From the NCBI GenBank assembly GCA_038231455.1, contig JBBRLI010000027.1, forward strand, positions 1 through 41,697: a stretch of 41,697 bases of DNA. Reading direction: 5' to 3'. This DNA is from Vulcanimicrobiales bacterium (GTDB lineage Bacteria > Vulcanimicrobiota > Vulcanimicrobiia > Vulcanimicrobiales > Vulcanimicrobiaceae). This document shows, piece after piece, positions 23,513 through 38,390 of the stretch; positions within the stretch are counted from its first letter, which is position 1, and each line of letters opens with the position of its first letter. A program made the position numbers and the translations under genes. The notes beneath the pieces are model-generated. The model saw only the letters and a program-made list of their open reading frames with translations, had not been told where the DNA came from and ran no database searches.

Positions 23513-26500
23513 ATGGGGGAAGGGCCGCTCGCGGAAAATGCGCTGAGCAATGCGCAGACCGAGGTCGCTCGCGACCGGGTAGTCCGACTTTTTAAATTTG
23601 TTTCGGCGTTGTACGAGCAGCGAAATCCCGCGACTCGCCAGATGTCCGACCACGAATGGATATTGAGGTTTAGTGATATCCCGGACCACGAGTCAATTAG
23701 TTTGGCTATTTCGATTCTCGATTCGGACGATGATTCTACTGCGGAATCACTAGAACCCCGCCCTTTGTTGGTCAGTACTCGACCGAAACTCACTAAGCGA
23801 CCCTCGGCTCTTGATTGCCTAGACTCTTGGCTCGACCGTGATTGGGACGACTGCCGTGCGAAGCCACTTCCTGTCGCGAGCAAAAACGAATTGATCGAAG
23901 GTGGCGAGACACGAGTAACTAGGTTTGAGGATAGCCTTGAACGAGTAGCCACTCTCGAGACATATCAAGCCGAGTGGACGTTGTGGGCGCAAAACGAGCG
24001 TATAGCACAATCCGCCGGTGAAATTTTTGAAAAATTGTACAAGCTTCACGGAATCTTACAGCGAGACGGGGAGCGGTACGAGCTTGTTGTCGCCGATGGT
24101 ATTTTATCGTGGTCCAGACCGGGCGGCGGCGTTCGACATCCTCTAATCACTCGCGCCGTTCGGCTCGATTTCGATCCTCAAACTCCAGCGTTCCGAATTG
24201 TCGAGAGTGGAGATCCATCTCAATTCTATTCGGCCCTGTTTAGATCGATGACCGACGTCGATGGATCGGCGGTGGGCCGGCTTCGTTCTGAGAGCGATGC
24301 GCTCGATTTGCACCCGCTTGGCGGCGCCGATGTGGTGGGTTTCTTGAAATCGGTGTCGTCCACTTTGTCTGCAAAGGGCATATATGTTGGACCCGAAGCA
24401 CCCGGGCCCGAAAGAGATTTTCCAGTAATCGGAAGGGGCCCAACTTTACTCCTCAGGCGCCGAACCGTGGGAGTCGCTCGGGCTTTTGACGCGATAATCG
24501 AAGATCTGAGCCAAGGCAAAGCCATTCCAGTGTCGCTCAAAAACGTCGTTGGAATAACGGACATTCCAAACGATGTGTCGCCACTCGTGTCTCACGAGAA
24601 CCAGCGACCAGGAATGACGTCGGAGGAGATGAGCGACGACTCGATTTTGTTCACCAAGGAGGCCAATCCCGAGCAACTAGACATCGCTCGGAGCTTAAAT
24701 CGCGATAATTGTGTCCTTGTGCAAGGGCCTCCCGGTACTGGAAAGACCCATACAATCGCAAATCTTTTAGGGCATCTTTTGGCCCAGGGAAAGAGCGTGT
24801 TGGTACTAAGCCACACAACTAAAGCCCTCAAAGTGTTGCGGGAGAAAGTTGTTCCTCAACTGCAGCCACTCTGCGTTAGTGTATTGGATTCTAAAGACGA
24901 CGATGCTGCGCTCAAATCTTCGATTGAGGGGATCGTAGAGCGTGTTGGGAACGTCGATATTGCAAAATTGGATCGCGAGATCGTTCGATATGGATCGGAG
25001 AGAAGCGGGTTAATTGGGGAATTGGCCCAGCTTAGAGAGTCGCTTGTCAACGCTCGTTTGGACGAACAGCGTGAGATTATTATCGGCGGGGAAGGCATTC
25101 GCCCCATTTCAGCTGCTGTTGAAGTATCGCGTGGTTTAGGCAGTCAGGATTGGATACCGGACGGCATTGCTATAGGAAGTCCGCAACCACTTTCTCAAAG
25201 TGAAGTTGCTGAGTTGTATGGTACAAACCGCTCGGTGACCCGGGAAGACGAAACGGCCCTCGCGTTGCGGTTGCCTGATAAAGGCGAAATCACACAGGCG
25301 GATGATTTCGCCGCTCTTTGCCAGGAAAGGCGCGAGCTTTCTGAGAGAGACCGCTTTTATCGACCCGGACTTTGGACGACGCCAAAGGGCGCAATAGCGG
25401 ACCAGCTTGATGCGGCTCTCCAAGTTGCGATTGACGCGGTGAGTGCGTGTGAATCGCTTCCATCATGGGTAGCTGGGCTCGTCGTCTCAGGTATATCTGA
25501 AGAGCGTTTTATTTGGGAAGAACTACTTGCTGAAGTTAGTGCACTACGAAGCGAAGCATTGGTCGGGCAACGGCTTGTACTAGTTCACACGCCTGTTCTC
25601 GCGCACGAGCTCGACGTCGAGCGCGCATCGGAAATTTACTCTGCTATCGAGAGTGAAATTAAAAAGACTGGAAAATTACCAAGCTTTCTAGCATTGCTTT
25701 CTCGACCCGAGTGGAAAAAAGCTATTCAAGGAGCAAGGGTTGGCGCAGGGTCGTCTCCACGCTTACCAGAGCACTTCTCGGCACTTGCTCGTTTGGCTCA
25801 AATCGAGTCAAGGCGTCAAGCATTTAGGAGACGCTGGGATGCTCAGGTAAAGCGAATTGGAGGACCATCAGCTGACTCGCTCGGGCGCGAGTGCGAGGTT
25901 GGGGCAAAGCTATTCTCTCCAATGATTTCAAACGCACTAGATTGGGTGCCTACGACGTGGGCGAAGGCCGAGAGCCTTCTTTCTGAATGCGGCCTGGCAT
26001 GGCACGCCTTAATCGCAGAAGCCAATTTAGCGTACCCCGATTTAGACAACGCTGGCAGAATCTCAAAGACGGTATCCGAGATACTACCGAAAGTTCTGGG
26101 ATCTGAACGAGCCAGAAGGCGTTGGAAATATGTGGATGACCAGCTCCAAATAATCAAACAGAAAACTATCTCATGGCCGGCCAATCAGGCGATTAGGCCG
26201 CTTCGCGACGCAATTGATGCGTATGATGAGAAATCATATCGACGCGAATCCTTTGAGCTCGAACGATTGCGCATGGTTTTAGATGTGTCAAACACGCGCT
26301 TTTCATTACTTACTCGGTTGGAGAGATTTGCACCAGGTTGGGCGAGCGCTATCAGGGGGCGAATCGGGATTCACGGGTTGTTTGATTGCCCTTCGGATGT
26401 CGATAAGGCGTGGAGGTGGCGACAATTCGAATCTGAGTTGAACCGGCGTAACGAGGTCTCGATACCGGACATCCTGCAGAATATCGAGCAGAAAAGAGGG

Positions 26501-28129
26501 CGACTTAGAGAAGTCACAACGAATTTAGTTGATCGCCGGGCGTGGCGTGCTCAGGCAGCGAGAACAACGTTATCCCAGCGCCAAGCCCTCCTGGGTTTTG
26601 CCGAATCAAAAAGACGTATCGGGCGTGGTACAGGAAAACGAGCCGCGCATTTCGCTCGCGCTGCTCGGGAGCGAATGGCAGACGCAAGATCAGCCGTTCC
26701 CGTGTGGATTATGCCTGTCGTGAAAGCCGCCGAGGTGTTCGACCCCCAAAATACGCGGTTCGATGTCGTAATCATTGACGAAGCTAGTCAGAGTGATGTG
26801 ACTGGCCTTTTGGCATTCTACCTTGGCGATCAAATTGTAGTGGTCGGCGACGACGAGCAAGTCAGTCCATCGGCGGTCGGAGAAAAGGCTGACGAAGCAC
26901 AGCATTTGATCGACGAAATGTTGCAAGGAATTCCAGATGCGCAACTTTTCGATGGAAAGCAGTCACTCTATGACATTGCAAAAAGATCATTTGGAGGGAC
27001 GATTTGCCTGCTCGAACATTTCAGATGCGTCCCTGAAATTATTCAGTTTAGCAATGAACTAAGTTATGCTGGAAGAATCAAACCACTTCGAGAGCGACAC
27101 GAGTCAGATCCCGAGCCGTCTGTAGTCGAGCATAGAGTCGTATCTAGTGTATCCGAAGGAAAAGTAAATGAACGCGAGGCCTTGGCAGTCGCCTCTTTAG
27201 TGCTGGCGGCGATCGAGCAACGCGAATACGACGGAAAAACTTTCGGAATAATTTCCATGGTCGGCGATGAGCAAGCATATCGAATCGAACAAATACTTCG
27301 CGCAGTTCTTACACCGGCGGTAGTGGAAGCTCGGCGCCTACTCGCTGGGAGTGCCGCTCAGTTTCAAGGGGACGAGCGTAATGTGATGTTCCTTTCGCTT
27401 GTTGATACGGGCCAGGGCGTGCCGTTGCCCCTTCGAGACACGCGCTCTTTTCAGCAAAGATATAATGTAGCTGCAAGCAGGGCGCAGGACCAGATGTGGA
27501 TAGTTCATTCACTGGACCGTGCGACAGAATTAAAACCAGGCGATTTAAGGCGGAGACTAATCGAACACGCGACAGATCCGGGTGCCGCAGAACGCAATAA
27601 GGCCGCCGCACTCAAGAAGGCCGAATCGAAATTTGAGGAAGCCGTCATCCAGCGACTTACGGGAGCAGGATTCTGGGTTGAAACGCAACGATGGGTTGGC
27701 GCTTATCGATTAGATATAGTTGTGCACGGAGAAAATCGAAAACGTTTAGCGATTGAATGTGACGGCGATCGTTATCACACAATCGAGACTCTACGGGAAG
27801 ATACAGAACGGCAGGCAATCTTGGAGCGCGTCGGCTGGACGTTCTCCCGCATTCGTGGAAGTAAGTTTTTTCGAGACGAGGATACCGCTTTACGCCCGGT
27901 TTTCGAGAAACTTGCTTCGATGGGAATCGAGCCCCATGCAGTTAGAACCGCTGTCGAATCTGGAAATAGTGAGTTAGTGTCTCGTGTAAAAGTTCGGGCC
28001 GCTGAATTAGAAACCGAAATTGGGTTAATTGATTTCAGCACAAAATCCCCGGTCCGAAAGAGCTGGCGAAAGAGTCTGGCTCAAGGTCGCGGCGGGGGAT
28101 TGGAAACAGTTCCCGGGGATGGGACGTGA
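23513..28129 (+). CDS. SF1 (UPF1/DNA2-like) helicase fused to a C-terminal Vsr/DUF559-like nuclease
   Basis: QGPPGTGKT, VIIDEASQ, VGDDEQ, EHFRC, FQGDERN, YNVAASRA; C-terminal ESKFE...YRLDIVV...AIECDGDRYH...RQAILERVGW; GGAG RBS. Confidence 0.92.
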   Translation: MGEGPLAENALSNAQTEVARDRVVRLFKFVSALYEQRNPATRQMSDHEWILRFSDIPDHESISLAISILDSDDDSTAESLEPRPLLVSTRPKLTKRPSALDCLDSWLDRDWDDCRAKPLPVASKNELIEGGETRVTRFEDSLERVATLETYQAEWTLWAQNERIAQSAGEIFEKLYKLHGILQRDGERYELVVADGILSWSRPGGGVRHPLITRAVRLDFDPQTPAFRIVESGDPSQFYSALFRSMTDVDGSAVGRLRSESDALDLHPLGGADVVGFLKSVSSTLSAKGIYVGPEAPGPERDFPVIGRGPTLLLRRRTVGVARAFDAIIEDLSQGKAIPVSLKNVVGITDIPNDVSPLVSHENQRPGMTSEEMSDDSILFTKEANPEQLDIARSLNRDNCVLVQGPPGTGKTHTIANLLGHLLAQGKSVLVLSHTTKALKVLREKVVPQLQPLCVSVLDSKDDDAALKSSIEGIVERVGNVDIAKLDREIVRYGSERSGLIGELAQLRESLVNARLDEQREIIIGGEGIRPISAAVEVSRGLGSQDWIPDGIAIGSPQPLSQSEVAELYGTNRSVTREDETALALRLPDKGEITQADDFAALCQERRELSERDRFYRPGLWTTPKGAIADQLDAALQVAIDAVSACESLPSWVAGLVVSGISEERFIWEELLAEVSALRSEALVGQRLVLVHTPVLAHELDVERASEIYSAIESEIKKTGKLPSFLALLSRPEWKKAIQGARVGAGSSPRLPEHFSALARLAQIESRRQAFRRRWDAQVKRIGGPSADSLGRECEVGAKLFSPMISNALDWVPTTWAKAESLLSECGLAWHALIAEANLAYPDLDNAGRISKTVSEILPKVLGSERARRRWKYVDDQLQIIKQKTISWPANQAIRPLRDAIDAYDEKSYRRESFELERLRMVLDVSNTRFSLLTRLERFAPGWASAIRGRIGIHGLFDCPSDVDKAWRWRQFESELNRRNEVSIPDILQNIEQKRGRLREVTTNLVDRRAWRAQAARTTLSQRQALLGFAESKRRIGRGTGKRAAHFARAARERMADARSAVPVWIMPVVKAAEVFDPQNTRFDVVIIDEASQSDVTGLLAFYLGDQIVVVGDDEQVSPSAVGEKADEAQHLIDEMLQGIPDAQLFDGKQSLYDIAKRSFGGTICLLEHFRCVPEIIQFSNELSYAGRIKPLRERHESDPEPSVVEHRVVSSVSEGKVNEREALAVASLVLAAIEQREYDGKTFGIISMVGDEQAYRIEQILRAVLTPAVVEARRLLAGSAAQFQGDERNVMFLSLVDTGQGVPLPLRDTRSFQQRYNVAASRAQDQMWIVHSLDRATELKPGDLRRRLIEHATDPGAAERNKAAALKKAESKFEEAVIQRLTGAGFWVETQRWVGAYRLDIVVHGENRKRLAIECDGDRYHTIETLREDTERQAILERVGWTFSRIRGSKFFRDEDTALRPVFEKLASMGIEPHAVRTAVESGNSELVSRVKVRAAELETEIGLIDFSTKSPVRKSWRKSLAQGRGGGLETVPGDGT

Positions 28130-29821: not shown

Positions 29822-30787
29822 ATGAGCAGTCGGACCCTCGGAATCAGCGCAGCCCTCACGGCGACCATCCTCTGGGGGATGCAGTTTCCCGTGCTTGGCG
29901 CCGTGCTACACGATCTCGACCCGTTCTGGCTGACGTTCGTGCGCTACCTGACGGCGACGTTGATTCTGGCCGCCGTCGTGCTGTTGCGCGAAGGGCGGGA
30001 AGCTTTTTCGCTCGAGGGCCGGGGCTGGACCGTCGCGGGTCTGGGCATTCTCGGATTCTCGGTGTTCAACGTCGCGCTGCTGTTCGGCATCCGCATCAGT
30101 GGACCGCAACACGGCTCGCTGATCATGGCGACGACGCCGCTACTCGTCGTACTCATTGGCTGGCTGCGCGGCGGTGCGAAGCCGACGGTACGGACGCTCG
30201 GATTTATCGCGCTTGCATTTTTCGGCGTCGCGCTCGTCGTCACCAAAGGCAATCCCGCAAGCGTGCTTGCGGCGGGCGATTGGATCGGCGATCTTTTGAT
30301 GCTCGGCGGCGCGCTCTGCTGGGCGACCTATACGTCGTGGATCCCGGCGTTCGCGTCGTGGTCGCCGCTACGCTACACGATGCTCGGCACGTTTTTCGGA
30401 ACGCTCTCGACGGCCGGCATCGCGCTCGTTGCAACGGCTCTTGGATTTTCACGTCTCCCGACGGTTGGCGGCTTCGTGCATGCGTTGCCCGGTATGGCGT
30501 TTCTTGCGATCGCCGGTGCGGTGATTGCTCTCGTTGCGTGGAACATCGGGATCGCCAAACTCGGTGCGGCGACGGCGGTCCTCTTCATGAACGTCGTGCC
30601 GATCACGGCGTTCGCTATTGCAATCGGCTTCGGCGCCCACTATCCGGCGATCGAATACGTCGGCGCTGCGATCACGATTCTTGCACTCGTGCTCAACAAC
30701 ATCGTCGCGCGACCGCGAATGCGGCCGGTCTTAGCCGCGGTCGAAGGCGATCGCTCCGCCTTTGATCACCAGCGCGGGGTCGCGTAG
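29822..30787 (+). CDS. DMT/EamA-family transporter
   Basis: About 10 hydrophobic helices in two repeats (LWG...R; GDLLMLGGALCWATY); TAAGAT 6 nt before the ATG. Confidence 0.92.
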   Translation: MSSRTLGISAALTATILWGMQFPVLGAVLHDLDPFWLTFVRYLTATLILAAVVLLREGREAFSLEGRGWTVAGLGILGFSVFNVALLFGIRISGPQHGSLIMATTPLLVVLIGWLRGGAKPTVRTLGFIALAFFGVALVVTKGNPASVLAAGDWIGDLLMLGGALCWATYTSWIPAFASWSPLRYTMLGTFFGTLSTAGIALVATALGFSRLPTVGGFVHALPGMAFLAIAGAVIALVAWNIGIAKLGAATAVLFMNVVPITAFAIAIGFGAHYPAIEYVGAAITILALVLNNIVARPRMRPVLAAVEGDRSAFDHQRGVA

Positions 30788-31912
30788 CGCCCGCGTTTCC
30801 ACATCGAGTTCGCCGTCGAGTGCGAGTAGGTCGGCCGGGCGTCCCGGTTCGATCACGCCTGCATCGACGCCGAGCAATTCGCCCGCGGATTTCGTTGCAG
30901 CACTCAGCGCTTGCGAGGCAGTCATGCCCAGAATCGTCTGCATGAGTTCGACTTCGTACCAGTAGTTTTCGTGAAAATTGTACGGCGTGCCCGCATCGCT
31001 GCCACCGGCAAACATCACGCCAGCCTCGAACGCGCGCCGTAGGTTTACGCGCATCTTATCGTAGATCTCGGTCGCTTTGCGTATGACGTAGTCGGGCTGC
31101 TTGCCGTTGTCGATGTTCTCGAAGATGCACGTGATGGCGGCGATCGTCGGCACGAGATAGGTGCCGCGTTCTTTGAAAAGCGCGATCGCCTCGTCGTCCA
31201 GCAAATGACCGTGTTCGATGGAGGTGACGCCCGCCCGCAAGGCGTTCTTGATACCGCTCGTGCCGATCGCGTGCGCGGCGACGCGCATGCCGTGCGTCGA
31301 GGCCTCGACGATCGCCGCCCGCATTTCTTCTTCGCTGAGCTGATCGCGGCCCGGGACCGCGCCCTTGGTGAGCACGCCGCCGGTCGCGATGAGTTTGATG
31401 CAGCCGGCTCCGGCTTTGAGCTGCTCGCGCACCGCTTTGCGCGCGTCCCACGGACCGTCGGCTTCGCGGCCGATGAAGAATCCGTGACCGCCCGTCATGC
31501 AGATCGCGCGGCCGGCGGGGATGATCGTCGGTCCGACGTGCTCGCCGCGCGCAACCGCATCACGGATCGCGATTGCATTCCCATCGGTCGCGCCGAGATC
31601 CCGACATGTCGTTACGCCGGCTTCAAGGGCCTTGCGCGCATTTGCAACCGCGCCGAGTGTTTTTTCCGCCGGCGTTTTGATGATGTAGACGCCCATCACG
31701 TCGGGTTCGCCGTTGACTTCCAAGTGCACGTGCGAATTGATCAATCCCGGGCTGACGGCGCGCGTTTCGATCGTGCGCTCGGCATCGATCGCCGTCGTGC
31801 CGTCGACGATCGAATGGATCGTCGTCCCCTCGATGAGGATCGTGACGTTGCGGCGCGGCGCGGAGCCGGTGCCGTCGTAAAGCGCGCCGCAGCGCAGAGC
31901 AAGAGAGTTCAC
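30731..31912 (-). CDS. Metal-dependent amidohydrolase (Xaa-Pro dipeptidase-like)
   Basis: PGLINSHVH, GVTTCRDLG, IKLIATGG, AAHA, SIEHG, GSDAG. Confidence 0.92.
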   Translation of the reverse strand: MNSLALRCGALYDGTGSAPRRNVTILIEGTTIHSIVDGTTAIDAERTIETRAVSPGLINSHVHLEVNGEPDVMGVYIIKTPAEKTLGAVANARKALEAGVTTCRDLGATDGNAIAIRDAVARGEHVGPTIIPAGRAICMTGGHGFFIGREADGPWDARKAVREQLKAGAGCIKLIATGGVLTKGAVPGRDQLSEEEMRAAIVEASTHGMRVAAHAIGTSGIKNALRAGVTSIEHGHLLDDEAIALFKERGTYLVPTIAAITCIFENIDNGKQPDYVIRKATEIYDKMRVNLRRAFEAGVMFAGGSDAGTPYNFHENYWYEVELMQTILGMTASQALSAATKSAGELLGVDAGVIEPGRPADLLALDGELDVETRALRDPALVIKGGAIAFDRG

Positions 31913-32163
31913 ACGGGACCTTTCGCGGATGGTGGAAAGAGGCGATCTGCGCCGAGCGCGGCGCGATCGAAGTAGCGCGCGTGCGTCACGAGCACGTCGG
32001 CACGCGAAGTCGCCTCTAAGAGCACGACTTCCACATCGGGCTTCGCGATCGATTCGAGTTCGAGCAGGAGCCGCTCGCGTCGCGCTTCGAGGGGATCCTC
32101 AAACCAGCGCTCGAGGGTCGTCGTCGCGGTTTGCCGGTCGTAGGCGATCAGGACGCTAATCAT
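31909..32163 (-). CDS. Putative CapRel-type antitoxin (84 aa)
   Basis: VLIAYD...F.D...A...E...EVVLLEATS...THARYFD parallels the CapRel antitoxin domain ending YPNYF; overlaps the upstream SAS stop. Confidence 0.65.
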   Translation of the reverse strand: MISVLIAYDRQTATTTLERWFEDPLEARRERLLLELESIAKPDVEVVLLEATSRADVLVTHARYFDRAALGADRLFPPSAKGPV

Positions 32164-32842
32164 CGAAACGCAGCGCTTCGAGGATTCCCGTTCGGCGACT
32201 CACGACTGTCGTCACGCGTTCGAGGGCTTCCATCGCCTCGTCGGTATCGATCGTCGCGCCGTCGGCGCGCGCGCGTCCGGCCGTCTGCAGATACTCGTTG
32301 TCGGCGACGAACCGGCTCATGGTCATGAGCGCCGCCACGACATGCGAGGGGCCGCCGCCGTATTTGAGGTCGAAGCCGTGCTTGTCGGCGAGGCGTTCGG
32401 AGAGCTGGGCCCAGCGGTGCTGGGCGAGAGTACGCACCTGGAATTCAAACGGGAGCGGAAAGCGCGCGAGCACATGCACCGCGCGATAGCCGTAGGTGGG
32501 AAACGAACGGCGGTCGACGATCTGCGTCGTTTCGATCCGCGCGCAGAGTTCGGCGGTGATGCGGTCCTGCTCGGCAATCGTCCGCACAACGATACGCGCG
32601 CCCGCGATGTCTTGCACCGACGAGAGTCGGGTCGGCGCGTTGCGGACGAGCTTATCGAGAATCGAACGAGCAGATTTATGACGCGCAACGATTGCGGTGT
32701 CGAGTTCGGCTGCGAGTTTGGGGATCGTCGTTGCGAAGATCGGTTCGAACGTCGCGCGGTACGCGTCGAGTTCCCGCAAGTCATCGGCCTCGGGCGCCGT
32801 TCGTAGGCGTGCGCCGAGACGGTCGATCTGTGCGCCGGTCAA
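32156..32842 (-). CDS. RelA/SpoT-domain small alarmone synthetase, CapRel-like toxSAS
   Basis: RHKSARSILDK, QDIAGAR, GYRAVH, EFQVRT.AQH.WA; N-terminal QIDRLGARLR; no hydrolase domain; TTG start overlaps the upstream stop. Confidence 0.88.
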   Translation of the reverse strand: MTGAQIDRLGARLRTAPEADDLRELDAYRATFEPIFATTIPKLAAELDTAIVARHKSARSILDKLVRNAPTRLSSVQDIAGARIVVRTIAEQDRITAELCARIETTQIVDRRSFPTYGYRAVHVLARFPLPFEFQVRTLAQHRWAQLSERLADKHGFDLKYGGGPSHVVAALMTMSRFVADNEYLQTAGRARADGATIDTDEAMEALERVTTVVSRRTGILEALRFDD

Positions 32843-34032
32843 TGGACCACGACCGAGATCAGGTCGTCGATCGCAGCGAAGCAGCGGTCGATATCCGCCG
32901 TCGTATTGTAGTGCGCAAACGACAGCCGCACGGCCGTTCCGCCGCGATCCGAGGCGATCGACTGCATCAGACGCGGGCTATAATAATCGCCGAAGCGCGC
33001 TTCGATGCCCGCGCTATCGAGCCCACGCGCGACGCTCTCGCCCTCTTCGCGCTCGACATTGAACGCGAAGAGGGGGAGCCGGTAGAATCCCGCCGGACGA
33101 CCGTAAAGCGTGATGACTTCTGCGCGAAGTTCGAATTTTGTGAGCGCGTATTTGCTCAGAGTGCGCTCGTAGGTTGCGATCGAATCCATCGCCGCGCGCA
33201 GCTTTCCGCCGCCGACATCGCGCAGATAATTCACCGTGCCGAGCCAGCCGGCAACGGCCTCGTGGCTCTGTGTCCCCGGTTCGATCGACCAGTACGCTGC
33301 GCCCGTTGGAACGAGCGGGTCGTCGCTGCGAAAGAATCGCTCGGAAAAATCCGGGTGCGCGTACCAGAATCCCATGTGCGGTGCGAATATCTTGTATGCG
33401 GAGAACATCACGGCATCGAACGCCGGATCGATATCGACGCGACGGTGCGGCAACATCTGCACGCCGTCGACCATAACGATGGCGCCGACGGCTTTGGCTT
33501 CACGCGCGTATGTCGTAACGTCGAACACCGTGCCCGTGCAGTTCGACGCCCACGGGAGCGCGACGAGGACCGGACCGCGCGCGAGTGCTTCGTGGTACGC
33601 GGCTTCATTGATGTCGCCGTTCTCATCGACGGGAACGATGTCGATCTCGGCGCCGAAGTTCGCGAGCCACATCCACGGCGAGACGTTGGCTGAGTGATCG
33701 GCGGCCGTCAGCACGATCCGGTCGCCCGGTCGGATCGACGGCGCGATGGCGCGCGAGAGATGCATCGCAATCGAGGTTGCATTCAGTCCGATACCGACCG
33801 TTGCGCTCGGCACCCCGATCAACTCTGCAAATGCGGACTTGCCCTCCGCGATGAGTGCGCTCGTGCGTATCGGGCGTGCGAAGATCGATCCTTTTTGCGA
33901 ATTCTCGACCACGAGATACGCCTGCATGCGCTCGATCGTCTCGAGTGGGAGCTGTGTCGAAGCGGCGTTGTCCGCAAGGATGCGGCCTTCGGCGCGCGCG
34001 GCGACGACGCCCGGAAAGCGGCTGCCGTTCAC
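32839..34032 (-). CDS. Class V PLP aminotransferase (cysteine desulfurase-like)
   Basis: DNAASTQ, DHSAN, ASNCTG, VDGVQ, FSAYK, VRLSFAHYNT. Confidence 0.9.
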   Translation of the reverse strand: MNGSRFPGVVAARAEGRILADNAASTQLPLETIERMQAYLVVENSQKGSIFARPIRTSALIAEGKSAFAELIGVPSATVGIGLNATSIAMHLSRAIAPSIRPGDRIVLTAADHSANVSPWMWLANFGAEIDIVPVDENGDINEAAYHEALARGPVLVALPWASNCTGTVFDVTTYAREAKAVGAIVMVDGVQMLPHRRVDIDPAFDAVMFSAYKIFAPHMGFWYAHPDFSERFFRSDDPLVPTGAAYWSIEPGTQSHEAVAGWLGTVNYLRDVGGGKLRAAMDSIATYERTLSKYALTKFELRAEVITLYGRPAGFYRLPLFAFNVEREEGESVARGLDSAGIEARFGDYYSPRLMQSIASDRGGTAVRLSFAHYNTTADIDRCFAAIDDLISVVVH

Positions 34033-34958
34033 GAGCGCGCCGCGGCGGCTTCGAGAGCGGTAAACGCGCGCGAGGTAAGCGGGTGATCGAGTTTGCTAGC
34101 GATGAAGCGCGACGCTTCGCGGATCTTCGTAAGGTCGATTCCCGTTTCGATCCCCATTCCGTGCAGCATATAGAGCAAGTCTTCGGTGGAAAGGTTGCCG
34201 CTCGCGCCCGGCGCGTACGGACAGCCGCCAAGACCGCCGGCCGACGAATCGAACGTTGCGATTCCCATTTGCAGTGCTGCCATGACGTTGGCAAGCGCTA
34301 TGCCGCGTGTATCGTGGAAGTGCATCGCCAGGCGCTCGACCGGCATTTTGTCTTGTAGTGCTCCGGCGACATCGACGACTTGGTTTGGCGTTGCAACGCC
34401 GATCGTATCGCCAATCGAGAGTTCGTCGATCCCCATATCGGCAAGCCGCTCGGCGACACGCACGACATTTTCAACCGGAACCGCGCCTTCGTACGGACAC
34501 CCAAACGCCGTCGAGATGTAACCGCGCACCCACATGTTTTCGGTGCGCGCGCGGCGCACGACGGCGGCGAACGTGGAGATCGACTCGTCGATCGTCATGC
34601 CGATATTGGCTTTGGTGAAACTCTCCGAGGCCGCGGTGAAGACGGCGATCGCCGTTGCGCCCGCAGCGATCGCGCGATCGAGTCCGCGGTCGTTCGGCAC
34701 GAGCACGAGGTACGTGACGCCGGGTCGCTTGTCGATGCGCGCGAAGACGTCGTCTGCATCGGCAAGCTGTGGGATGGCTTTGGGACTCACGAAGGACGTC
34801 GCCTCGACGATCGGCGCACCCGCGGCCGAGAGCAAGTCGATGTAGCGCACTTTATCAGCGACGGAGACGATGCTCGATTCGTTCTGCAGACCGTCGCGCG
34901 GTCCGACTTCACAAATCTTGACCCGCTGCGGCAGCGTCGTCAAACTGGTTGCGCTCAT
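34029..34958 (-). CDS. liuE: Hydroxymethylglutaryl-CoA lyase
   Basis: EVGPRDGLQNE, SFVSPK, DTIG, HFHDT, GGLGGCPYAPGASGN. Confidence 0.95.
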   Translation of the reverse strand: MSATSLTTLPQRVKICEVGPRDGLQNESSIVSVADKVRYIDLLSAAGAPIVEATSFVSPKAIPQLADADDVFARIDKRPGVTYLVLVPNDRGLDRAIAAGATAIAVFTAASESFTKANIGMTIDESISTFAAVVRRARTENMWVRGYISTAFGCPYEGAVPVENVVRVAERLADMGIDELSIGDTIGVATPNQVVDVAGALQDKMPVERLAMHFHDTRGIALANVMAALQMGIATFDSSAGGLGGCPYAPGASGNLSTEDLLYMLHGMGIETGIDLTKIREASRFIASKLDHPLTSRAFTALEAAAARS

Positions 34959-35731
34959 GGGGCCCGCTCCGATTTGAGAAAGTTCACCGTATGTTCGACG
35001 ACGCGCGGCCACATCGAGTCATCGTGCACGAACCCGCGGATGAGTGAGGTAAAGGGATTCGACAGGGCGCCGAGGTTGAGGTGGTTTGCGCGATCGTCGT
35101 CAATGAACACGGTGGGAATGTGTTCTTCTAGATGTGCCGATTCGCTTCGCACGACCCCGTCGCTTGCGGTCGGCCCGGCAAACCGGGGCACCCGGCCCAC
35201 GATGGCGAGGATGCGTGTGCCTTCCGGAACGACGAACGGTTTGCGGTCGAGAATCCAGAGTTTGTGTTTGGGATCTGCCGTCGGCACCCAGTGACCGCTC
35301 GTTCCATTGAGCCAAGTCATGAACGGCGATGCGACGTCGAGATCGGCGAGTTCTTCGGCGCGGATGCGAAAGCGCTGCGAGAGTTGCGCGAGATAGTTGG
35401 TGATGAGGCCGCCATTGGGTGATGCCAATTGCACGATCCCGGCGATCTCGTGCGCACGCTCGGGATACGCGCGCAAAAATCCGCGCGCGATCAACCCGCC
35501 GGCGCTAAAGCCGAAGATAGCGACCGGAAACGCCTGCGGTTCGCGGCTTTTGAGGCGATCCAGAAATCGCGCCAGCTCGTCGACGCGCGGCCGCAGACCG
35601 AATTTGCCTTGCGGAAAGATGATCGAGTCGAATCCGTACGCGGAAAAACCGTAGCGGCCATTGCGCCCCTGATCGAAAGTCTCCATCAGGTCGGCGACTT
35701 CGTGCCAGCCGGGAAGTAAGATGATCTTCAT
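34955..35731 (-). CDS. Alpha/beta-hydrolase (lipase/esterase-like)
   Basis: LLPGW oxyanion region, GFSAGG nucleophile elbow, LASPNGG, SDGVV, NHL. Confidence 0.85.
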   Translation of the reverse strand: MKIILLPGWHEVADLMETFDQGRNGRYGFSAYGFDSIIFPQGKFGLRPRVDELARFLDRLKSREPQAFPVAIFGFSAGGLIARGFLRAYPERAHEIAGIVQLASPNGGLITNYLAQLSQRFRIRAEELADLDVASPFMTWLNGTSGHWVPTADPKHKLWILDRKPFVVPEGTRILAIVGRVPRFAGPTASDGVVRSESAHLEEHIPTVFIDDDRANHLNLGALSNPFTSLIRGFVHDDSMWPRVVEHTVNFLKSERAP

Positions 35732-37611
35732 TCGTGCAGCTTCACAAGCGTTGCGCCCGCGGCGACCAGTTGGCCCGGTTCGACGAACACCTCACCGACG
35801 TTGCCGGCAAGGGGTGCCTCGATGCGATGTTCCATCTTCATCGCTTCGAGCACGACGAGTAGCGCGCGCGCTTCGACGCGATCGCCTTTGCGGACCGAGA
35901 CGCTGGTGATTTTGCCCGGCATCGGCGCGGTCACGGTGCCGGAGCCGGTCGTGGCGGCGTGTTCGGCGTCGGCGCTGGGCACCGCAGCGAACGCGAAACG
36001 ATAGGCGCATCCGCCCAGATCGACGCTGATGCCGGTCGGATCGATGCGCGCATTCGCCGGCAGATCGCGGCGCGCGATCCTTCCGGCGAGGTCGCCGCTT
36101 AGAACGAAGTCGTCGCCGCTGAGCGTGATGTCGGTCGCGACTGTTTTTCCGCCGATCGTGAACCGCACCGGCATGCCGACGCTCCCCATGCGCCACGCGC
36201 GTCCGCTCGCCGCGAGCGTTGCTGCAGCAATGCGCGCCGCATCGAAAACGGCCGCCGGGTGTGCAGCCAGCAAGTTGGCGAGGATCGGCCGCTCCTCAAG
36301 AAAGCGTGTCGTCGTATCGCCGGCAATGTAGGCGGAATCGGCAAAGATCGCGCGCAGCATGCCGAGGTTCGTCGTGACGCCGCCGACCTCGGTGCTCGCG
36401 AGTGTCGCCTGCATCCGCGCGATCGCAGCGTTACGATCGGCGCCCCACACGATGATCTTGGCAAGCAGCGAGTCGTAGTACACGCTCACCTCGCTGCCCG
36501 CGCGAAAACCGGTATCGACGCGCACGCCCGGCGCATTCGGAACCGAGAACGCGGTGAGGGTGCCGATCGAAGGCAGAAAGTCGTGCGCGGGGTCTTCGGC
36601 GTTGAGACGCGCTTCGATCGACCAGCCGCGCGGTTCGACGCTCCCGATCGTCAAGCGCTCGCCCTGCGCGATGCGCAGTTGCCAGTGGACGAGATCGACT
36701 CCGTAGACGAGTTCGGTGACGGGGTGCTCGACTTGCAAGCGCGCGTTGACTTCGAGGAAGTAGAAGCTACCGTCCTCATCGAGCATGAACTCGACGGTGC
36801 CCGCATTCGTGTACCCTACCGACTCTGCCGCTGCAATCGCCGCCGCAAACATCTGCTCGCGCAAACGTGCATCGAGCGCGACCGACGGCGCTTCCTCGAG
36901 CACTTTTTGGTGACGTCGCTGGATCGAACACTCGCGCTCGCCGAGCGCTAGCGTCGTTCCGTGCTGGTCGGCAAGAATTTGTACTTCGATGTGGCGCGGC
37001 CGGCGTAGGTAGCGTTCGAGCAGCACGGCGTCATCGCCGAAGGACGCTTTGGCTTCGCGCATCGCCGAGGCGAGCGCATCGTCGAACTGCGCGAGGTCGT
37101 CGACGACACGCATGCCGCGTCCGCCGCCGCCGGCACTGGCTTTGATGAGCAGCGGCAAGTCGATGCGTCCGGCTTCCGTACGCAGTCGCTCGAGCGAACG
37201 ATCCTCGCCGTCGTAACCGGGGACGACCGGAACGCCGCGTTCGCGAACGCGCTGCTTGGCCTCGATCTTGCTGCCCATCTGCGCGATCGCCGAGGGCGAC
37301 GGTCCGACGAAAATCAACCCGGCATCGGCGACGGCCTGTGCGAACGGCGCGCGTTCGGAGAGAAACCCGTAGCCCGGATGGATGGCATCAGCACCGAGCG
37401 TCTTGGCTGCGGCGATGACGCGTTCGCCTTGCAGATACGATTCCGTCGCGGGTGCCGGGCCGATGTTGATACTCGCATCCATCACCTCGCGGTGCAGCGC
37501 GTGGACATCGGCATCGCTATACACGCCGACGGGCGAGATGCCGAGTTCGCGCGCACCGCGTGCGATGCGCACGGCGATCTCGCCGCGATTGGCGATGAGC
37601 AGCCGCTTCAT
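35728..37611 (-). CDS. liuD: 3-methylcrotonyl-CoA carboxylase alpha subunit (biotin carboxylase plus biotin carrier)
   Basis: Start ATG 37611 (MKRLLIANRGEIA); HPGYGFLSE, GGGGRGM, RECSIQRRHQK, RLQVEHPVTE, EAMKME. Confidence 0.9.
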   Translation of the reverse strand: MKRLLIANRGEIAVRIARGARELGISPVGVYSDADVHALHREVMDASINIGPAPATESYLQGERVIAAAKTLGADAIHPGYGFLSERAPFAQAVADAGLIFVGPSPSAIAQMGSKIEAKQRVRERGVPVVPGYDGEDRSLERLRTEAGRIDLPLLIKASAGGGGRGMRVVDDLAQFDDALASAMREAKASFGDDAVLLERYLRRPRHIEVQILADQHGTTLALGERECSIQRRHQKVLEEAPSVALDARLREQMFAAAIAAAESVGYTNAGTVEFMLDEDGSFYFLEVNARLQVEHPVTELVYGVDLVHWQLRIAQGERLTIGSVEPRGWSIEARLNAEDPAHDFLPSIGTLTAFSVPNAPGVRVDTGFRAGSEVSVYYDSLLAKIIVWGADRNAAIARMQATLASTEVGGVTTNLGMLRAIFADSAYIAGDTTTRFLEERPILANLLAAHPAAVFDAARIAAATLAASGRAWRMGSVGMPVRFTIGGKTVATDITLSGDDFVLSGDLAGRIARRDLPANARIDPTGISVDLGGCAYRFAFAAVPSADAEHAATTGSGTVTAPMPGKITSVSVRKGDRVEARALLVVLEAMKMEHRIEAPLAGNVGEVFVEPGQLVAAGATLVKLHE

Positions 37612-38390
37612 GCGTGCCACGTCGCGGGACGGCGTTCGAGGAATGCGCGCAAGCCTTCTTGTCCTTCGGGTGAGGTGCGCACGCGCGCGATCGTGCGGGC
37701 GGTTAGCAACGCGCTCTCGTCGTACGTTGCCGCCCGAACGCGCTGAATCAGGTCTTTGGCCGCGACGACGGCGCTTGGGCCGGCGGTCCCGAACTCCGCG
37801 ATCAACTCGTTCAGGCGCCGCTCGAGCGCGTCGTCGTCGAGGACTTCGTGCACGAGGCCGATCGCTTTTGCGCGCTCCGCCGAAAAGCGTTCGCCGGTGA
37901 GAAACAGCGCGCGCGCGTGCGAGACGCCGATTTTGGCGATGACGAAAGGCGAGATGACCGCAGGGATGATCCCAAGCTTCGTTTCGGTGAAACCGTAGAT
38001 GGTCCCGGGGCTGCTCAGCACGATATCGCAGACGGCGGCAAGGCCTGCGCCGCCGCCGAGCGCCCCGCCGTGAATGCGCCCGATGACGGGCTTGGGACAG
38101 CGATCGATCGCGCGATACATCTGCGACATGCGCTCGGCATCCGCCACGTTTTCGGCCTCGGAGAGCTCGAGCGACCCCCGCATCCAGTTGACGTCGGCGC
38201 CGCCGCAAAACGTCTTCCCAGCCCCGTCGAGGACGATCGTGCGGACCGACGCGTCGGTTCCGAGGTGGTCGAACGCTGCCCGCAGTTCGGCGATCAGTTC
38301 GGCGTTGAAGGCGTTGCGCACGTCGGGGCGCTGCAGCGTCACGCGGGCTACTGCGCCGTCGCGGACGACACGGAGGACGGTGTCTGGCAT
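37608..38390 (-). CDS. liuC: Enoyl-CoA hydratase family, likely methylglutaconyl-CoA hydratase
   Basis: RPDVRNAF, FCGGAD, ALGGGAGL, ETKLGIIPAVISPFV; context of liu genes. Confidence 0.88.
   Translation of the reverse strand: MPDTVLRVVRDGAVARVTLQRPDVRNAFNAELIAELRAAFDHLGTDASVRTIVLDGAGKTFCGGADVNWMRGSLELSEAENVADAERMSQMYRAIDRCPKPVIGRIHGGALGGGAGLAAVCDIVLSSPGTIYGFTETKLGIIPAVISPFVIAKIGVSHARALFLTGERFSAERAKAIGLVHEVLDDDALERRLNELIAEFGTAGPSAVVAAKDLIQRVRAATYDESALLTARTIARVRTSPEGQEGLRAFLERRPATWHA

Follow-up and report, generated by a model that had tools for sequence, protein, structure and literature searches.

Two overlapping genes on the minus strand of a Vulcanimicrobiales contig raise the question of what a RelA/SpoT-type synthetase and a small companion protein are doing inside a chain of metabolic genes. 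The window, that is, the whole stretch of DNA analyzed, comprises 41,697 nt, and a sequence-only reading of it had proposed a split CapRel-like toxin with its antitoxin, acting either as a domesticated phage sensor or as a translation or alarmone switch tied to leucine catabolism. Here, we address what kind of module the two genes form, how the small protein might restrain the synthetase, and what the surrounding genes say about its role.

A synthetase-only RelA/SpoT homologue with conserved active-site residues

The first gene of the pair (32156..32842, minus strand), a candidate toxSAS gene recognized by its ORF, a Pfam match and our family profile A4, encodes a synthetase-only RelA/SpoT homologue of 228 aa. 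It starts with TTG; the open frame offers no other start codon before the conserved N terminus is reached, and this TTG overlaps the stop codon of the upstream aminotransferase gene as TTGA. The protein matches a single Pfam family, RelA_SpoT (PF04607), at 6e-12 and with 46.3 bits where the cut-off is 27, the HD hydrolase and C-terminal regulatory domains being absent. Judged by its sequence, the protein is a member of the RelA/SpoT synthetase (SYNTH) superfamily with the architecture of a small alarmone synthetase (SAS).

The SAS carries R54-x-K56, D78-x-x-G81-x-R83, G118-Y-R-A-V-H123, E133-x-Q-x-R137-T and Q-H142-x-W144-A, the first four being the catalytic motifs named RxK, DxxGxR, GYRAxH and ExQxRT in this superfamily. 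As first read from the sequence, the synthetase motifs are all present, and they coincide with invariant columns of the family alignments. That is, R54, K56, D78, G81, R83, Y119, R120, H123, R137, W144 and E149 are invariant among 83 sequences, and E133 and H142 are at least 90% conserved, with E133 being invariant in a smaller set of 28. The window SAS has every invariant or ≥90% conserved active-site residue of the 83-sequence alignment, and its synthetase active site is intact. Compared with most family members, its R-x-x-K loop lacks one residue; the resulting R-H-K gives back the R-x-K spacing found in RelQ and CapRel. In the G-loop (G118-Y119-R-A-V-H123; 32474..32491, minus strand), placed by sequence and by alignment to 9erv and 7ztb, Y119 aligns with Y155 of CapRelSJ46, just as R54 and R83 align with R79 and R116. 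The Y155A exchange in CapRelSJ46 abolishes defence (PMC9712102).

A small downstream gene with a highly conserved motif

The second gene (31909..32163, minus strand) encodes an 84-aa pZFD-like protein, which its ORF, homology to gp30 of Phrann, synteny and models identify as a putative antitoxin of the ATphRel/ATcapRel family. Its ATG overlaps the SAS stop codon by 8 nt (ATGATTAG), and its own stop codon overlaps the GTG start of the downstream amidohydrolase gene as GTGA. The ORFs and the junctions that chain them to an aminotransferase and an amidohydrolase are thus as originally described. The stretch EVVLLEATS...THARYFD includes T60-H61-A62-R63-Y64-F65 (31969..31986, minus strand), the motif with the highest conservation in the antitoxin: among 81 sequences, H61, R63 and F65 never vary, and T60 and Y64 are at least 90% conserved. 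The published form of the motif is Y-x-x-Y, as against H61-x-x-Y64 here; conservation and the complex model described below predict that it plugs the ATP donor site.

Searched as a single sequence, the 84-aa protein found no match in Pfam, NCBIfam, PADLOC or PDB sequences, and a word-based homologue search recovered only six relatives; the family emerged only when a profile was run on the fetched loci. Likewise, no Pfam family matched more than two of the 81 family members. Against PDB sequences, profile A3, built from these members, gave two chance-level rows only, neither of them CapRel or ATfaRel2, and there was no match of the small-protein profile to the sequence of fused CapRelSJ46 at E ≤ 10.

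An AF2 model of the small protein (pLDDT 84) has the order β1-β2-α1-β3-α2 plus a short helix at residues 62 to 64, and so forms a three-stranded sheet plus helix. In antitoxins of the pZFD type, the expected fold is an antiparallel sheet of three strands, interrupted by one helix and trailed by a Y-x-x-Y 3-10 helix. While Foldseek returned no PDB match for the model at E ≤ 0.001, re-ranking by VIA-align put ATfaRel2 on top (8pu2, followed by 8pu1 and 8pu3), a weak match with Z 5.0 and 2.1 Å over 58 residues of 74. No solved structure ranked above ATfaRel2, which has a sequence identity of 12% to the small protein and is circularly permuted relative to the pZFD of CapRel (PMC11782079). The C-terminal domain of CapRel itself (9erv 285-350, 7ztb 285-363) superposes with Z 3.4-3.6; in fused CapRelSJ46, this pZFD plugs the ATP site with an aromatic x-x-Y motif (PMC9712102).

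A probable two-gene module of the PhRel/CapRel branch

Both proteins have counterparts in the mycobacteriophage Phrann. The small-protein alignment A3 (81 sequences) matched Phrann gp30 by hhalign (97.5%, E 5e-12) over 65 columns that take in LIEFNR and THSRYF, and hmmsearch with the A3 model scored gp30 at 39.6 bits. The SAS alignment A4 matched Phrann gp29 at 99.6% (hhalign, E 1e-23). Profile A4 scored 112 bits on gp29 (PhRel), compared with 65 for fused CapRelSJ46 and 63 for RelQ; PhRel stands well clear of RelQ, and fused CapRel exceeds it only marginally. The top PDB matches of A4 were CapRelSJ46 structures (7ztb/9erv, 6.6e-17), with the N-terminal helices included (query 3-184); matches to RelQ (2e-16) left these helices uncovered, and the FaRel2 SAS was missing from the PDB sequence matches at E ≤ 0.1. 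In addition, the SAS matched the PADLOC candidate defence family PDC-S33 at 2e-23.

These homologies bear out the proposed assignment as a toxSAS with its cognate antitoxin, and gp29:gp30 as well as capRel:aTcapRel of Mycobacterium are validated toxin-antitoxin pairs with homologous antitoxins (PMC7229694). We think it quite probable that the pair is a bicistronic type II toxSAS toxin-antitoxin module of the PhRel/CapRel branch, for which toxicity and a tRNA target would be expected by analogy with its relatives. PhRel and CapRel inhibit translation specifically, and pyrophosphorylation of the tRNA CCA end was shown biochemically for FaRel2 and PhRel2; tRNA-using toxSASs are described there as having no clear sequence signature (bioRxiv 10.1101/2021.04.30.441581). 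Since the weakest toxicity and translation effects were published for precisely the CapRel and PhRel representatives (PMC7229694; bioRxiv 10.1101/2021.04.30.441581), the window enzyme may be mildly toxic or non-toxic.

The module resembles Phrann gp29/gp30 (PhRel:ATphRel) in having the toxin gene first, followed by an antitoxin of 71-84 aa, and in the antitoxin homology, which takes in the LIxYxR start and the THxRYF motif. However, gp29 is a prophage-borne protein of 292 aa, compared with 228 aa for the chromosomal SAS of Vulcanimicrobiota; the two are ∼35% identical over 133 residues, and in our tree, Phrann falls outside all 91 other rows, at the end of a very long branch. By description, a further likeness is to the unfused CapRel:ATcapRel of Mycobacterium sp. 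AB308 and M. terramassiliense, reported as a bicistronic pair that is sister to PhRel and whose antitoxin is a homologue of ATphRel (PMC7229694, PMC9712102). Unfused CapRel is reported mainly from Actinobacteria (Zhang et al., PMC9712102), whereas the clade of the window SAS spans Acidobacteriota, Pseudomonadota, Planctomycetota, Vulcanimicrobiota and others. Term look-ups in three supplements of PMC7229694 for the genera of the related loci gave no labeled SAS of this clade.

The idea of a split CapRel was not supported by this comparison. The window SAS shares the toxSYNTH domain, including the N-terminal helices, with fused CapRelSJ46 (7ztb, 9erv), but the latter is a single polypeptide of 373 aa that neutralizes in cis and senses a capsid protein, whereas the window antitoxin is a separate protein. 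The SAS profile is closer to gp29 than to CapRelSJ46, and the two-gene form is the one originally described and canonical for PhRel/CapRel modules (PMC7229694). Here, as in 78 of 80 related loci, two ORFs are separated by a stop codon. Among the best 150 matches of the antitoxin profile, none apart from P0129 is ≥300 aa long, and therefore none resembles a SAS-antitoxin fusion. P0129 (3555 aa), in which the profile matches internally, was dropped, having a repetitive or low-complexity look and several unrelated Pfam families but no single stretch that passed. Nothing points to the splitting of an originally fused gene. The module is of a known kind, already characterized in mycobacteriophage, to which the window pair adds one member.

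A model of the complex suggests how the toxin would be held in check

Co-folding, which the sequence-only reading had suggested, gave a complex of SAS and small protein with a median score of 0.87, the best of three controls reaching 0.07. This passes a mark that 58 of 80 solved complexes also attained, as did 2 of 110 mismatched pairs, although the pass may reflect likeness rather than binding by the window copy, because the FaRel2:ATfaRel2 complex is solved. The runs have at least 91% of contacts in common, and the pLDDT of the partner is at least 84. The model supports binding of the window antitoxin to the SAS.

In the model, the T-H-x-R-Y-F turn is set between R54 and R83 of the SAS, at the ATP donor site. 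T60 and H61 contact R83, H61 contacts V52, and T60 contacts V85 and H142; T60 to R63 all belong to the predicted interface residues of the antitoxin. In addition, the third strand of the antitoxin (residues 44-51) pairs with SAS residues 50-55. These predicted contacts fit the earlier suggestion that THARYF corresponds to the neutralizing Y-x-x-Y-F motif of fused CapRel, and the modeled geometry is like that of FaRel2:ATfaRel2 (8pu1-8pu3), where neutralization in trans combines a β-sheet extension with a 3-10 motif between two arginines (PMC11782079). Similarly, a YXXY 3-10 helix in CapRelSJ46 sits between R79 and R116 and blocks the donor site for ATP (PMC9712102).

The mechanism proposed from the model is that strand 3 of the antitoxin would extend the β-sheet of the SAS, while the T-H-x-R-Y-F turn would plug the gap between R54 and R83, whose counterparts in CapRel and FaRel2 hold the donor ATP by its adenine. 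With the turn in this position, the modeled SAS could not bind ATP. Loss or displacement of the antitoxin would then free the SAS, plausibly during phage infection, as characterized relatives suggest.

The pair is conserved as a unit across diverse bacteria

The small gene lies directly downstream of the SAS gene in 78 of 80 related loci, the remaining two being at a contig edge. In 76 of these 78, the spacing ranges from an overlap of 32 nt to a gap of 33 nt. With a homologue behind the SAS this consistently, the pair is no chance ORF arrangement. The loci come from Acidobacteriota, Pseudomonadota, Planctomycetota, Gemmatimonadota and others, and the antitoxin family comprises 1497 representative clusters at E ≤ 0.001. 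Apart from L001, none of the loci (79 in all) has any neighbor in common with the window, and a diverse set of genes flanks the pair, which moves as a unit from one unrelated genomic setting to another.

These contexts are chromosomal and mostly housekeeping. Our scan covered 137 of 143 flanking ORFs, leaving out one each at L054 and L080 and two each at L062 and L076; the ORFs were called by a crude longest-ORF rule, and some may not be real genes. Few hints of defence or mobility turned up, namely SIR2_2 in L011, P63C in L019, Uma2 in L049 and Xre in L036. In 50,697 phage records, the antitoxin of L077 had no match by tblastn, and the SAS had 10 weak ones. Closer to home, the SAS was found in 4 of 40 related genomes searched, and in 2 of 24 from the same family.

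Such patchiness among relatives, the housekeeping flanks and the scarcity of phage matches would suit a plain selfish or addictive cassette with no role in phage defence, which is kept since loss of its labile antitoxin kills the cell. We regard this reading as possible but doubtful: Phrann gp29/gp30 and fused CapRel act against phages (PMC7229694, PMC9712102), and the SAS matches a candidate defence family. Selfish and defence roles are also compatible with each other and inseparable by sequence.

A probable old insertion at a metabolic junction

In the window, the pair is preceded by a class-V aminotransferase or cysteine-desulfurase-like gene (32839..34032, minus strand) and followed by an amidohydrolase gene (Xaa-Pro dipeptidase-like; 30731..31912, minus strand), both outside the module. 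We compared presence and absence at this site among relatives, as had been proposed. The amidohydrolase is conserved beside an HMG-CoA lyase that usually abuts it directly, as in six published genomes from this family (G017, G019, G013, G008, G006 and G021); in other relatives, the junction holds a methyltransferase, an aminotransferase plus a methyltransferase, or the toxin-antitoxin pair. G004, from another genus, has a diverged pair at the same junction (40% and 34% identity), with the aminotransferase absent between HMG-CoA lyase and the pair. This recurrence could mean long-term retention rather than selfish turnover.

In G018 and G023 a methyltransferase occupies this slot, but tblastn found no trace of it in the window, and a repeat search around the pair revealed no direct repeats on its flanks, which would have indicated an insertion scar. 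The composition is host-like, as claimed before, with GC3 values of 0.76 (SAS) and 0.74 (small ORF) compared to 0.71-0.78 for the neighbors. We read the pair as having been inserted long ago between HMG-CoA lyase and amidohydrolase and as ameliorated in composition since. The accompanying claim that mobile genes are lacking stands for the cluster itself; however, a defence-like helicase gene of low GC (GC3 0.49) lies 3.8 kb away.

Between 30500 and 38500, a promoter scan predicted 4 sites, as against 1.6 ± 1.2 in shuffles, but the minus strand ahead of the SAS had none; a terminator scan of the same region gave 5 sites versus 6.5 in shuffles, and hence no signal. The pair is probably read through from upstream genes. 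Stop/start overlaps with metabolic genes at both ends, together with the lack of a promoter-like site for the SAS, are unusual for an autoregulated toxin-antitoxin operon.

This arrangement would suit the view that the pair has been domesticated, with the SAS making low, non-lethal amounts of (p)ppGpp or (pp)pApp or modifying tRNA, and the small protein tuning it as a growth brake coupled to the leucine-catabolism cluster. The host-like GC3 would agree, as would the diverged pair in G004, the grouping of Vulcanimicrobiota SASs in the tree (a 14-row clade, SH-aLRT 90), the 97% identity of the pair between G000 and G001, where it is conserved at least as well as its neighbors, and the presence in its own genome of just one other RSH, a long Rel. 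Yet the neighbors in the 79 other loci are unrelated, the junction is empty in the six published genomes and filled by a methyltransferase in others, the SAS is rare even within the family, and the closest characterized relatives are toxins, all of which makes domestication improbable. The pair is probably no functional part of leucine catabolism, and the link to a metabolic operon is weak. We give equally little credence to a version in which the pair, long kept at the leucine-cluster junction, has lost its own promoter in the window's genus and become translationally coupled, its tRNA-modifying toxSAS being a starvation-linked translation brake rather than a phage sensor; if true, expression of a toxSAS would track branched-chain amino-acid catabolism.

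That the genes are decaying, functionless remnants is hardly credible, as nothing specific speaks for it beyond the TTG start and the one-residue deletion, for which R-H-K restores the spacing, while all invariant catalytic positions are kept and both ORFs are intact in G000, G001 and metagenome relatives (78-96% identity for the SAS, 65-93% for the small protein).

Implications for toxSAS modules

Taken as a PhRel/CapRel-type toxin-antitoxin module, this single locus adds little, being one more toxSAS pair, from a poorly studied soil phylum. The unfused form of the module is far wider than its mycobacterial examples. Having no Pfam, NCBIfam or PADLOC model, the antitoxin family is missed by genome annotation; alignment A3 could be turned into a family model to label its members. 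The setting of the pairs in these lineages is mostly housekeeping rather than prophage, which bears on whether such modules serve defence or mere persistence.

A RelA/SpoT synthetase and a small ORF in a metabolic gene cluster

The 228-aa synthetase-only RelA/SpoT protein (SAS; positions 32156-32842, Pfam-supported ORF call) and the 84-aa small ORF (31909-32163, ORF call) both lie on the minus strand, between a class-V aminotransferase/cysteine-desulfurase-like gene (32839-34032) and an amidohydrolase (30731-31912). Further upstream on the same strand are an HMG-CoA lyase (34029-35012) and an alpha/beta hydrolase (34955-35731), which like the two flanking genes were assigned by ORF call plus Pfam and NCBIfam, and a biotin carboxylase-type ORF (35728-38208), read from its own sequence alone as the methylcrotonyl-CoA carboxylase alpha subunit. 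The stop/start chaining described in the sequence-only reading matched exactly: the aminotransferase/SAS junction is TTGA, SAS and the small ORF overlap by 8 nt, and the small ORF/amidohydrolase junction is GTGA. SAS starts at a TTG, the sole start codon 5' of the conserved N-terminus, and close relatives start at that position too. GC3 of SAS (0.76) and the small ORF (0.74) lies within the range of the neighbours (0.71-0.78).

At its longest reading (826 aa), the ORF of the carboxylase alpha subunit opens with some 200 arginine-rich, low-complexity residues ahead of the conserved MKRLLIANRGEIA, and its true start is probably internal. The alpha/beta-hydrolase ORF as listed overlaps the HMG-CoA lyase by 58 nt.

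SAS is related to PhRel and CapRel toxins

SAS matches Pfam RelA_SpoT and, in PADLOC, the candidate defence family PDC-S33 (positions 11-222 of the 349-position profile). A word-based search yielded 141 relatives, mostly of 220-280 aa and 38-47% identity, the named ones carrying no annotation beyond "putative GTP pyrophosphokinase" or hypothetical. Using a profile built from these relatives, we retrieved 80 genomic loci spanning Acidobacteriota (many Pyrinomonadaceae), Planctomycetota, Gemmatimonadota, Chloroflexota and others, including Pseudomonadota of the genera Roseateles, Xanthomonas and Stenotrophomonas; one Vulcanimicrobiota record is 97% identical to the window SAS. Invariant positions in an alignment of 83 SAS sequences include R54, K56, D78, G81, R83, Y119, R120, H123, R137, W144 and E149, with E133 and H142 conserved in at least 90%, so the active site is intact.

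Gene 29 of mycobacteriophage Phrann is among the best phage matches of SAS, and gene 30 comes next. These genes encode PhRel:ATphRel, which together with Mycobacterium capRel:aTcapRel is described as an experimentally validated toxin-antitoxin module by Jimmy et al. (2020, PMC7229694), who place PhRel and CapRel as sister subfamilies sharing a homologous antitoxin. The profile of the 83-sequence alignment scores 112 bits against Phrann gp29 (hhalign probability 99.6%), as compared with 65 bits against the fused CapRelSJ46 (7ztb, 9erv), where the N-terminal helices are covered too, and 63 bits against RelQ. With respect to CapRelSJ46, SAS keeps counterparts of R116 and Y155 (R83 and Y119, by alignment) and of R79 (R54, by the ungapped R-x-K...S-I-x-x-K-L register). 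According to Zhang et al. (2022, PMC9712102), a Y-x-x-Y 3-10 helix of CapRel sits between R79 and R116 and blocks ATP binding. Kurata et al. (bioRxiv 10.1101/2021.04.30.441581) report specific inhibition of translation by PhRel and CapRel, and biochemical tRNA CCA pyrophosphorylation for FaRel2 and PhRel2.

The small ORF belongs to a large antitoxin family

As a single sequence, the small ORF had no match in Pfam, NCBIfam, PADLOC or the PDB sequences, and a word-based search found six relatives only. When a profile of these six was run across six-frame ORFs of the 80 loci, a homologue appeared directly downstream of SAS in 78; in the two exceptions (L037, L073), the locus ends one base past the SAS match. 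Overlaps of at most 32 nt or gaps of at most 33 nt separate the two ORFs in 76 of the 78. The resulting 81-sequence alignment has the consensus MIFLIEYDR...EVVLLEA.SE.ALRRTHRRYF, with Y8, E45, H61, R63 and F65 invariant. It aligns to gp30, the Phrann antitoxin, over 65 columns (hhalign probability 97.5%, E 5e-12), spanning the N-terminal LIEFNR and C-terminal THSRYF, and hmmsearch with the antitoxin profile gave gp30 39.6 bits.

A search of 1.84 billion representative proteins with the antitoxin profile returned 1497 clusters at E <= 0.001, of which 711 reach E <= 1e-10; the best 150 of the 1497 are nearly all stand-alone proteins of 68-120 aa. The C-terminal domain of fused CapRel is reported to be homologous to PhRel/CapRel antitoxins, and the fused form is said to prevail in CapRel except in Actinobacteria (Zhang et al. 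2022). The sequence-only reading had proposed a "split CapRel"; the more fitting description is a canonical two-gene module of PhRel/CapRel type, which by score is closer to PhRel.

One family member, P0248 (244 aa), fuses the antitoxin domain to a GNAT acetyltransferase domain, and a GNAT gene immediately follows the pair in two Blastocatellia loci and is found on the other strand in one Pyrinomonadaceae locus (L033 5971-6480; L066 3268-3786; L061 5967-6461). The pair seems damaged or miscalled in three loci: L026 (380-1362) has a truncated SAS ORF (142 aa) and a 269-nt gap, L062 (5025-5941) a 95-nt gap, and in L051 (5766-6002) the antitoxin match begins only at profile position 27.

Predicted fold and complex resemble FaRel2:ATfaRel2

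AlphaFold2 models the small protein (pLDDT 84) with three strands (2-9, 14-21 and 44-51) and two helices (24-37 and 54-60), and a further short helix (62-64) falls on the H-A-R-Y motif. Foldseek returned no significant match for this model, the best TM-score being that of the antitoxin ATfaRel2. Upon re-ranking of structures, ATfaRel2 entries took ranks 1, 2 and 4 (Z 5.0, 4.9 and 4.7; 2.1 A over 58 residues), and the CapRel C-terminal domain reached Z 3.4-3.6. Such Z values are insufficient alone for a fold relationship, yet they fit the link found by sequence.

Modelling the complex of SAS and the small protein gave a median score of 0.87, and the best of three controls reached 0.07; of 80 solved complexes 58 attained this mark, as did 2 of 110 mismatched pairs. 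The runs agree on at least 91% of contacts, with partner pLDDT of at least 84. In the predicted interface, antitoxin strand 44-51 pairs with SAS strand 50-55, T60 and H61 lie on SAS R83, and T60 on V85 and H142. The model thus has the same geometry as FaRel2:ATfaRel2, for which beta-sheet extension and a motif stacked between two arginines are described (PMC11782079). Likeness to this already solved complex may account for the high score; with that reservation, the model supports binding of SAS by the small protein.

The pair occupies a variable slot

SAS was found in 4 of 40 related genomes: G001 (same genus, 97% identical), G004 (43%), G032 (40%) and G040 (weak, partial match). We sought the amidohydrolase in the same 40 genomes. 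The HMG-CoA lyase abuts it directly in six published same-family genomes (G017, G019, G013, G008, G006, G021) and the unpublished G020. The junction holds a SAM-methyltransferase-like gene in G011, the aminotransferase plus that methyltransferase-like gene in G018 and G023, a diverged SAS/antitoxin pair (40% and 34% identical) without the aminotransferase in G004, and the aminotransferase plus the pair in the window's own genome and G001; none of the query genes lay upstream of the remaining surveyed amidohydrolases. The junction is thus a slot whose contents vary between genomes; the pair in it is an accessory insertion and no conserved member of the pathway. The ~250-aa ORF filling the slot in G018, G023 and G011 (L099 4225-5010, minus; L100 747-1496, plus; L114 745-1494, plus) is a putative SAM-methyltransferase from a by-eye reading of its GAGTG motif.

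Leaving L001 aside, the other 79 loci share none of the window's neighbour genes, and the 137 flanking ORFs scanned are diverse and mostly housekeeping (e.g., lpxC, S-adenosylhomocysteine hydrolase, peptide deformylase, ABC transporters, peptidases), with just a few defence or mobile hints. The proposed tie to leucine catabolism is thus positional and not conserved. In two Roseateles loci (L018 4060-4992; L067 4031-4963), the pair immediately follows lpxC, in the same orientation (gaps of -3 and +29 nt by crude ORF calls), another instance in which a housekeeping gene closely precedes the module.

The host-like GC3 speaks for an old insertion; scans around the pair found no flanking repeats and no promoter-like site ahead of SAS. 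In a quick maximum-likelihood tree, the window SAS, metagenome relatives, G004 and G032 form a 14-row clade (SH-aLRT 90), with long branches for G004 and G032 and a very long one for the Phrann outgroup. One old insertion at the junction and two independent insertions are both possible.

Another stretch of the window, of low GC (0.51-0.55; GC3 0.49), carries a 1538-aa helicase/nuclease-like ORF (23513-28129, plus) with PADLOC matches to candidate and known defence families (PDC-S37 2e-51, Hhe 5e-35, MkoC 4e-30). Synteny with G001 stops straight after the GT4 gene, and the 3.3 kb of G001 retrieved beyond that point yielded no helicase counterpart. The ORF, 3.8 kb away from the toxin-antitoxin pair, appears to be a defence gene of recent acquisition.

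A further PhRel/CapRel-type module

The assignment as a toxSAS with its cognate antitoxin is supported by the homology with a validated pair, by the conserved pairing, by the fold and by the complex model; we infer its toxicity, substrate and trigger. The pair adds one more module to an already known PhRel/CapRel-type kind. Its antitoxin family (~80 aa, MIFLIEYDR...THRRYF) is large and without a library model; no Pfam family matched more than two of the 81 aligned members, and this alignment would readily yield a model for the family.
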